A DNA stretch of 7,639 nt from a virus (Duplodnaviria; Heunggongvirae; Uroviricota; Caudoviricetes), in the IMG/VR virus record IMGVR_UViG_2711768075_000006; one strand, 5' to 3'. Shown piece by piece: positions 161-3,100 of this stretch (the first letter of the stretch is position 1; each line of letters begins with the position of its first letter). A program made the position numbers.

Positions 161-3100
161 TCAGGCCGCGGCTAAAATGGCACGGGCAGGTCTTCTGGTT
201 ATCGAAGGTAAGGTCTGGCGAACGGTGTATTACCGGTTCGCTACTAGGGAAGAACGGGAAGGAAAGATGAGCACGAACCTGATTTTTAAGGAGTGTCGCC
301 AGAGTGCCGCGATGAAACGGGTATTGGCGGTATATGGAGTTAAAAGATGACCATCTACATCACTGAGCTAATAACAGGCCTGCTGGTAATCGCAGGCCTT
401 TTTATTTGGGGGAGAGGGAAGTCATGAAAAAACTAACCTTTGAAATTCGATCTCCAGCACATCAGCAAAACGCTATTCACGCAGTACAGCAAATCCTTCC
501 AGACCCAACCAAACCAATCGTAGTAACCATTCAGGAACGCAACCGCAGCTTAGACCAAAACAGGAAGCTATGGGCCTGCTTAGGTGACGTCTCTCGTCAG
601 GTTGAATGGCATGGTCGCTGGCTGGATGCAGAAAGCTGGAAGTGTGTGTTTACCGCAGCATTAAAGCAGCAGGATGTTGTTCCTAACCTTGCCGGGAATG
701 GCTTTGTGGTAATAGGCCAGCCAACCAGCAGGATGCGTGTAAGCGAATTTGCGGAGCTATTAGAGCTTATACAGGCATTCGGTACAGAGCGTGGCGTTAA
801 GTGGTCAGACGAAGCGCGACTGGCTCTCGAATGGAAAGCGCGATGGGGAGATCGGGCTGCATGACTATCAAATCAAATACGCCAGCACACGACAAGGACT
901 GCTGGCAAACGCCGCTTTGGCTTTTTGATGCACTGGATATTGAGTTTGGATTCTGGCTGGATTCGGCAGCGAGCGACAAAAACGCTCTGTGCGCTCACTG
1001 GCTAACTGAGGCTGACGACGCGCTAAATTCTGAGTGGATAAGCCACGGTGCAATCTGGAATAACCCACCGTACAGCAATATCAGGCCGTGGGTGGAAAAA
1101 GCCGCTGAGCAGTGCATACAACAGCGACAGACGGTAGTGATGCTTGTGCCAGAGGATATGTCTGTCGGATGGTTCAGCAAGGCTCTGGAGAGTGTTGACG
1201 AAGTTCGTATTATCACTGATGGACGGATTAATTTTATCGAACCATCGACAGGGCTGGAGAAGAAGGGAAACAGCAAAGGCTCCATGCTGCTGATTTGGCG
1301 ACCGTTCATTAGTCCTCGACGGATGTTTACTATCGTATCCAAAGCGGCATTGATGGCGATCGGGCAGGGCGTCAGGAGGGCGGCATGAGGCGACAACGAC
1401 GAAGTTTCACCGACATCATCTGCGAAAACTGCAAATACCTTCCAACGAAACGCTCCAGAAATAAACGCAAGCCAATCCCAAAAGAATCTGACGTAAAAAC
1501 CTTCAACTACACGGCTCACCTGTGGGATATCCGGTGGCTAAGACATCGTGCGAGGAATACAAGGTGATTGACCCAAATCGAAGTTACGAACAAGAAAGCG
1601 TCGAGCGGGCTTTAACGTGCGCTAATTGCGGTCAGAAGCTGCATGTGCTGGAAGTTCACGTGTGTGAGCACTGCTGTGCAGAGCTGATGAGCGATTCGAA
1701 TAGCTCGATGCACGAGGAAGAAGATGATGGCTAAACCAGCGCGAAGACGATGTAAAAACGATGAATGTCGGGAATGGTTTCACCCTGCATTCGCTAATCA
1801 GTGGTGGTGCTCTCCAGAGTGTGGAACCAAGATAGCACTCGAACGACGAAGTAAAGAACGCGAAAAAGCGGAAAAAGCAGCAGAGAAGAAACGACGACGA
1901 GAGGAGCAGAAACAGAAAGATAAACTTAAGATTCGAAAACTCGCCTTAAAGCCCCGCAGTTACTGGATTAAACAAGCCCAACAAGCCGTAAACGCCTTCA
2001 TCAGAGAAAGAGACCGCGACTTACCATGTATCTCGTGCGGAACGCTCACGTCTGCTCAGTGGGATGCCGGACATTACCGGACAACTGCTGCGGCACCTCA
2101 ACTCCGATTTGATGAACGCAATATTCACAAGCAATGCGTGGTGTGCAACCAGCACAAAAGCGGAAATCTCGTTCCGTATCGCGTCGAACTGATTAGCCGC
2201 ATCGGGCAGGAAGCAGTAGACGAAATCGAATCAAACCATAACCGCCATCGCTGGACTGTCGAAGAGTGCAAGGCGATCAAGGCAGAGTACCAACAGAAAC
2301 TCAAAGACCTGCGAAACAGCAGAAGTGAGGCTGCATGAATATCTACGAAAGAATTGATGGCAGCAAATACCGAAATATTTGGGTAGCTGGCGACCTGCAC
2401 GGATGCTACACGAACCTGATGAACAAACTGGATACGATTGGATTCGACACCAAAAAAGACCTGCTCATCTCGGTTGGCGATTTGGTTGATCGCGGTACAG
2501 AGAACGTCGAATGTCTGGAATTAATCACATTCCCCTGGTTCAGAGCTGTGCGTGGAAACCATGAGCAAATGATGATTGATGGCTTATCAGAGCGTGGAAA
2601 CGTTAATCACTGGCTGCTTAATGGCGGTGGCTGGTTCTTTAATCTCGATTACGACAAAGAGACTCTGGCTAAAGTTCTTGCCCATAAAGCAGAAGAACTT
2701 CCGTTAATCATCGAACTGGTGAGCAAAGATAAAAAATATGTCATTTGCCACGCCGATTATCCTTGTGATAAATACGAGTTTGGAAAGCCAGTTGATCATC
2801 AGCAGGTAATCTGGAACCGCGAACGAATCAGCAACTCACAAGACGGGATCGTGAAAGAAATCAAAGGCGCGGACACGTTCATCTTTGGTCATACGCCAGC
2901 AGTGAAACCACTCAAATTTGCCAACCAGATGTATATCGATACTGGCGCAGTGTTCTGCGGAAACCTCACATTGATTCAGGTACAGGGAGAAGGCGCATGA
3001 GACTCGAAAGCGTAGCTAAATTTCATTCGCCAAAAAGCCCGATGATGAGCGACTCACTACTGGCCATAGTTTATTGGTTTTCGTAACTGAGTCATTTTAT

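Follow-up and report, generated by a model that had tools for sequence, protein, structure and literature searches.

We asked what the 29-codon open reading frame (ORF) directly 3′ of ninI represents in a 7,639-nucleotide stretch of Caudoviricetes DNA (IMG/VR record IMGVR_UViG_2711768075_000006; this whole stretch is the window referred to below), a lambdoid prophage region that runs from nin to the late regulator. The ORF starts like the antitermination gene Q of phage lambda, is followed by an AT-rich cassette carrying lpxR, and precedes a second, different Q gene farther to the right. An interpretation made without database searches (the sequence-only reading) had taken it for a recombination scar inside Q that swapped antiterminator specificity and brought in cargo. 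Taken as a whole, our data are best explained, with high probability in our judgment, if the ORF is a nonfunctional 5′ stub of a lambda-type Q gene. The features on which this question turns are as follows.

2335-3000, plus strand: ninI (serine/threonine phosphatase), identified by a Pfam Metallophos match, the ORF and annotation; the last intact lambda-like nin gene
2997-3086, plus strand: 29-codon ORF (Q′), codons 1-20 as in lambda Q, then a few unrelated codons up to the stop
3032-3064, minus strand: decayed hairpin internal to lambda Q, whose equivalent in phage g341c is annotated as a probable paQ antisense RNA terminator
3058-3068, no strand: left breakpoint interval, with imperfect microhomology to lambda Q (8/10 in the common allele)

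The lambda Q fragment and its left boundary

In an ungapped comparison with lambda (J02459), the window was identical from 2968 to 3057, including 61/61 nucleotides of the start of Q (20 codons); 7 of the 9 positions at 3058-3066 still matched, and agreement then fell to chance level. The ninI side is 96% identical to lambda across 2344-3066, and the TGA stop of ninI overlaps the ATG of the stub as ATGA. When lambda Q (207 residues) was used as a tblastn query against the window, residues 1 to 20 were recovered at 100% identity (E = 4.9e-9), and no further lambda Q sequence was found in six frames at E values up to 100, the next best match having an E value of 1.5. By megablast against phage records, every match to a lambda-type Q gene ended at window position 3066. 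The sequence-only reading had the first 20 codons matching lambda Q, homology stopping at about codon 20 and the frame ending 9 codons later; these comparisons agree, with partial similarity continuing to 3066/3067 and randomness beyond, and alignment now places the breakpoint at 3058-3068.

The position of the original join is refined by variation among 67 copies, comprising the window and 66 loci from phage 434, complete genomes, and metagenome and IMG/VR contigs. At position 3067 the window carries the minority base, T, whereas 60 of the 67 copies carry C, as does lambda. In this common allele the lambda homology reaches codon 24 (…DSLLAT versus …DSPRAT in lambda), with codons 23 and 24 matching. 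The ancestral junction thus retains lambda sequence up to codon 24, to which a 72-nucleotide pseudogene called by the Prokaryotic Genome Annotation Pipeline (PGAP) corresponds. Two mismatches to lambda within the interval, T3058 and T3061, were invariant in 66/66 readable loci, including phage 434, with the stub directly to the left in all of them. Within IMG/VR the stub-specific sequence GATGAGCGACTCACTACTGGCCA was confined to the 54 contigs with the cassette, and a full-length Q allele with T3058/T3061 was found neither in IMG/VR nor among the E. coli matches listed. Both substitutions lie within the last 10 nucleotides of the 71-nucleotide stub, for which the likelihood under uniform decay is ∼0.02. 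They may be donor sequence in a patch of imperfect microhomology, or they may have arisen at or soon after the joining.

We also compared the stub with what defines a lambda-type Q. Descent is evident from the 5′ identity and from the position after ninI or ninH. The C-terminal domain (residues ∼113-199, including the zinc-binding motif) is missing, and where the cognate late promoter and its Q-binding site would be expected, the AT-rich cassette follows directly 3′; lambda sequence does not reappear farther right. By hmmscan the 29-residue product matched no Pfam family, whereas lambda Q itself matched PF03589 (6e-58, residues 113-199). Nine non-Q residues are too few for homology detection.

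Of 5,426 complete E. coli genomes, 620 carried the cassette, in one copy each, and both the left junction (620/620) and the right junction (620/620) were found in every one of these genomes. An exact-pattern scan with the sequence just right of the junction added 61 loci, on 7 metagenome and 54 IMG/VR contigs; no other left junction was seen among these 61 loci, and the stub was present in all of them. Upstream, the context is ninI in 431 and ninH in 189 of the 620 genomes. These two contexts diverge, to the point of being unalignable, exactly at the Q ATG at 2997, and both ninI-Q and ninH-Q exist with a full-length lambda-type Q in other phages. The block was found at several chromosomal sites, for example, adjoining ybhC and adjoining mdtA. 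The scar is thus old and of single origin; it is also already known, and it fits the established mosaicism of lambdoid phages.

The lpxR cassette and the replacement regulator

To the right of the breakpoint the window continues with the following features.

3068-4499 (1,432 bp), no strand: AT-rich lpxR cassette, 35.8% GC
3129-3165 (stem) with T-run to 3178, plus strand: hairpin and T-run, part of the lpxR unit and likely a terminator or insulator on the lpxR 3′ side
3212-4171, minus strand: lpxR, outer-membrane lipid A 3′-O-deacylase, 319 residues (PF09982, E = 6.8e-40; also from annotation)
4172-4499, no strand: AT-rich region upstream of lpxR, 28.7% GC, with presumed promoter and regulatory sites
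4500-4512, plus strand: right junction, the last 13 nucleotides of rusA (…GNE and stop), where phage 82 homology starts abruptly
4509/4512-4631, plus strand: ylcG-like small gene (orf45 of phage 82), from annotation and comparison
4646-5335, plus strand: phage-82-type antitermination protein Q (PF06323, E = 9.4e-92, full-length)
5319-5347, plus strand: late-promoter-like site, TTGCAA-17-TATACT
5381-5402 with T-run to 5410, plus strand: intrinsic-terminator-like hairpin, presumed part of a PR′/short leader/terminator arrangement for the Q82-type protein

The sequence-only reading had treated everything to the right of the stub as one replacement module. Foreign sequence is indeed joined inside Q, but it consists of two pieces: the lpxR cassette (3068-4499) and then, from 4500, a block made up of the rusA remnant, ylcG and the Q82-type gene. 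In an ungapped comparison with X92588, the match begins at 4500 and runs through orf45/ylcG and Q at 89% identity, and E. coli prophages with rusA-ylcG-Q begin to match at 4495-4501. The base composition follows the same division, the cassette having 35.8% GC versus 49.3% in the nin region and 45.3% in ylcG-Q.

The proposed change of antiterminator was borne out at the level of protein families, since the downstream Q belongs to PF06323 and lambda Q to PF03589, and the cargo is lpxR (PF09982). Residues 4 to 219 of the downstream Q align with positions 1 to 216 of the 220-position PF06323 profile, and this gene, annotated as Q82-like in phage 434, likely encodes a functional late regulator. The sites at 5319-5347 and 5381-5402 match promoter and terminator consensus sequences, in a scanned region where the counts of such matches were no higher than in shuffled sequence. 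A weak resemblance to Rfam STnc240 was also seen at 5342-5411 (29 bits, E = 0.34, below threshold).

The LpxR profile match is full-length as well (residues 10-318 versus profile positions 2-320 of 323). Given its opposite orientation and different base composition, lpxR is most likely a cargo gene expressed from the prophage (a moron). In enterohemorrhagic E. coli (EHEC), lpxR is reported to be activated by Pch and Ler and to act on lipid A (Ogawa et al. 2018, cited in PMC6393859). Promoter scans gave matches at chance level, and of the upstream region at 4172-4499, just the first ∼46 nucleotides are common to plasmid lpxR copies. Between lpxR and ylcG, in a stretch of 28% GC, we noted an unannotated 61-codon ORF (4296-4481, plus strand) with a very hydrophobic product, which may be a mere by-product of T-rich sequence.

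Among 50,697 phage records the cassette was found in phage 434 and 434B only, even by distant blastn. Outside E. coli we found one lpxR relative, in Citrobacter, with 73% protein identity and homology ending at the lpxR stop codon. A diverged paralogue with ∼78 to 80% DNA identity and the same 3′ hairpin occurs on E. coli IncFIB plasmids (at 1566-2525 and 1501-2460 in two IncFIB plasmid stretches), and in three such plasmid paralogues, homology to the window extends from ∼3127 to ∼4217 only. These copies indicate that lpxR is mobile on at least two kinds of element.

The hairpin with a T-run that the sequence-only reading had seen at 3129-3178 is real: it folds at −16.4 kcal/mol on the plus strand (z = −3.1) and at −19.1 kcal/mol on the minus strand (z = −6.9). 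A simple terminator scan missed it, as its loop limit was 8 nucleotides and 15 are needed here, so it was folded separately. Its position next to the junction stands, but it is not a feature of the junction: the plasmid lpxR paralogues keep the stem arms and the plus-strand T-run, with a different loop, which assigns the hairpin to the lpxR unit and not to the join in Q. The T-run is on the plus strand only, with no U-run on the lpxR sense strand, and the hairpin appears oriented to stop rightward nin transcription before it enters lpxR antisense. An Rfam search at E values up to 1 found no small RNA (sRNA) between Q′ and lpxR (3087-3211).

Formation, spread and other readings of the stub

From these junctions we infer joining guided by microhomology, translation of the stub, crossover within it and read-through of the hairpin. 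One ancient illegitimate recombination would have joined a lambda-like nin region, inside Q codons 21 to 24, to the AT-rich lpxR segment, probably guided by imperfect microhomology over ∼10 bp at 3058-3067; such guidance would be proved by a donor with TACTGGCCAC at these positions. At a second sharp junction, 4499/4500, the lpxR segment would have been linked to the last 13 nucleotides of rusA, with ylcG and the phage-82-type Q behind them. The illegitimate join in an essential regulator was presumably tolerated because a replacement regulator of another family came along, and late-gene control would be exerted by the Q82-type protein at the promoter-like and terminator-like sites after its own gene. 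The truncated Q is dispensable for lytic growth, since phage 434, a viable phage that has been propagated and sequenced (PMC9119081), shares the arrangement. With its ribosome-binding site (RBS) and ATGA overlap, the stub is probably still translated, and the resulting 29-residue peptide, without the whole Q domain, would have no antiterminator function. Rightward transcription from PR would run through the lpxR-side hairpin and T-run and then antisense through lpxR to the Q82-type gene, which only antiterminated polymerase would reach.

Since its formation, the Q′-lpxR-ylcG-Q block would have spread as a unit. The 71-bp stub would be the sole homology that the block shares with lambda-type-Q phages and is probably the crossover site, and crossovers within it would have placed the block behind both the ninI-Q′ and the ninH-Q′ contexts. 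We tentatively suggest, regarding it as quite possible though slightly on the doubtful side, that the stub is a portable homology arm, with one crossover moving lpxR and the Q82-type block onto any lambda-type-Q phage. Such an arm would explain why two unrelated nin contexts diverge exactly at the Q start codon, and it would deliver virulence-associated cargo and switch late antiterminator specificity in one step. In phage 434B, a laboratory precedent for exchange at the right-hand edge, everything from ylcG rightward has been replaced by DLP12 sequence through a crossover in ylcG, and the edges of the block therefore do recombine by homology.

Some points weigh against this account of the stub and its origin. 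The mismatches at 3058 and 3061 may be later mutations and not donor sequence. Selection on the stub can be neither demonstrated nor excluded, all copies being near-identical. A donor context from before the joining was not found in a scan of genome contigs with LpxR, by distant blastn against phages or on plasmids, and how and in which order the two joins came about is consequently a matter of conjecture.

We considered whether the stub instead acts in cis, so that it and the lpxR-side hairpin together would terminate transcription, or insulate the rightward PR/nin operon from the leftward lpxR. A relic of the paQ terminator, for example, would halt lpxR transcripts running antisense into ninI. 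The retained lambda segment ends 3 nucleotides past the stem-loop annotated in phage g341c as the probable paQ terminator (Q nucleotides 36-68), the relic hairpin is followed on the minus strand by UUUUU, and the lack of a U-run behind the 3129-3165 hairpin on the lpxR sense strand makes a second, downstream stop plausible. The relic is degraded, however: the surrounding 56 nucleotides have a folding energy of −9.5 kcal/mol in the window (z = +0.2) versus −26 kcal/mol in lambda (z = −4.2), both stub-specific substitutions fall within the stem, and conservation among near-identical copies is uninformative on function. This makes a role in cis improbable. The specific candidate of a stub kept as a working paQ terminator was rejected, its fold being no better than that of shuffled sequence.

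That the 29-codon ORF encodes a functional small protein of its own right is less probable still, and we regard it as very unlikely. Its RBS is intact, translation would be coupled to ninI by the ATGA overlap, the ORF is open in 67/67 copies, and it is annotated as a coding sequence in the phage 434 record. Against this, 20 of the 29 residues are the start of lambda Q and the remainder is an unrelated tail running to the first stop; the product matches no family, is known at this junction only and exists in near-identical copies, so that a comparison for a conserved small protein came out negative; and PGAP calls the gene a pseudogene. The variants in the stub among the 67 copies, two nonsynonymous (3016 and 3067) and two synonymous (3038 and 3041), give no sign of purifying selection. 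Nothing beyond first impression speaks for a recent frameshift, nonsense mutation or assembly error in an otherwise intact lambda-type Q, a reading that can be dismissed as next to impossible, given that no lambda Q residues past 20 to 24 are encoded in any frame of the window (tblastn in six frames, with nothing past residues 1 to 20, excludes a simple frameshift) and that the same junction is shared by 620 complete genomes and by phage 434, which was sequenced from purified virions.

With the ORF read as a stub of lambda-type Q, the scar illustrates, cleanly and in a datable form, the assembly of lambdoid phages, and the block has spread unchanged through prophages of EHEC and enteropathogenic E. 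coli (EPEC) and phage 434. The scar is useful as a marker for the lpxR cassette, the stub is best annotated as a pseudogene, and no new mechanism is revealed. The stub is already annotated, in the phage 434 record and, as a PGAP/RefSeq pseudogene or incomplete antitermination protein, in many genomes; what is new here is that both junctions are delimited exactly, that the right side is shown to have two parts and the junction to be the same in every carrier, that the upstream contexts split 431/189, and that the hairpin is assigned to the lpxR unit.

Surroundings of the junctions and known systems

Over 2800-3400 the window matches, at 100% identity, a decayed prophage adjoining ybhC in E. coli O145:H28 strains. 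Phage 434 is 98.5% identical over the same interval and 99.4% identical over 3000-4700. The features outside the junctions are as follows.

Gene order, left part: ren (cut by an IS3-family insertion sequence [IS]), ninB, DNA adenine methyltransferase gene, ninE, ninF, ninG, ninI, 29-codon ORF
Gene order, continued: lpxR (minus strand), ylcG, Q, gene for a 252-residue membrane protein, DUF3927 gene, degraded genes, IS110-family element
5505-6263, plus strand: multi-pass membrane protein of 252 residues, no Pfam match, conserved 3′ of the late promoter in phage 434 and prophages

Compared with lambda, ninC and ninD are replaced by the DNA adenine methyltransferase gene at 861-1388 (difference noted at 864-1392), and ninH is missing, which leaves ninG adjacent to ninI; the N-terminal residues of NinI are unlike those of lambda (2338-2344). 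The source is a prophage remnant, as noted at 1-350 and ∼7435-7639. In the identical O145 genome an IS3-family element lies between the int/xis end and the shortened ren, and the immunity and replication genes are absent between these two points. Downstream of the DUF3927 gene we observed the IS110-family ISEc20 and several pseudogenes. At 6518-6722 on the plus strand, a full-length Rfam match to STnc100 was found (E = 1.7e-6), its 41.4 bits falling short of the gathering score of 47. A preprint (10.64898/2026.05.13.724894) describes the EPEC prophage sRNAs PasD1 and PasD2, which are related to STnc100, with Q and lpxR within 10 kb of >98% of PasD hits; the match at 6518-6722 is probably a PasD gene.

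Among known systems, phage 434 is nearest. Its CPT_434_64 (OL657226) has the same stub, junctions and gene order and is described as an antiterminator-like protein, an N-terminal fragment of lambda Q. It differs from the window in carrying C at 3067 (Thr versus Ile in the window) and an 8-nucleotide deletion at ∼3094-3101 in the AT-rich spacer, and it is an intact phage, whereas the source of the window is a decayed prophage at ybhC flanked on either side by IS elements. The announcement of the phage 434 genome (PMC9119081) notes differences between the morons of 434 and those of lambda and does not discuss the stub.

Lambda Q (PF03589) shares with the stub the 61 nucleotides, the upstream RBS and the overlap with ninI. 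The stub, by comparison, lacks ∼183 of the 207 codons, including residues 113 to 199, and has no qut/PR′ site. The rusA-ylcG(orf45)-Q block of phage 82 and DLP12 (X92588) corresponds to the window from 4500 onward at 89% identity, in the same order and with a Q of the same Pfam family, but in the window just 13 nucleotides of rusA are left and the lpxR cassette lies upstream.

The morons of lambdoid phages, as described in the Hendrix and Juhala literature, are extra genes of atypical composition that are expressed from the prophage. Like them, lpxR is atypical in composition, with a lower GC content; it is placed, in opposite orientation, among conserved phage genes and is flanked by a hairpin of its own. 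Unlike them, it did not enter an intergenic position: its insertion destroyed Q to the left and rusA to the right, and it goes together with a change in the type of Q.

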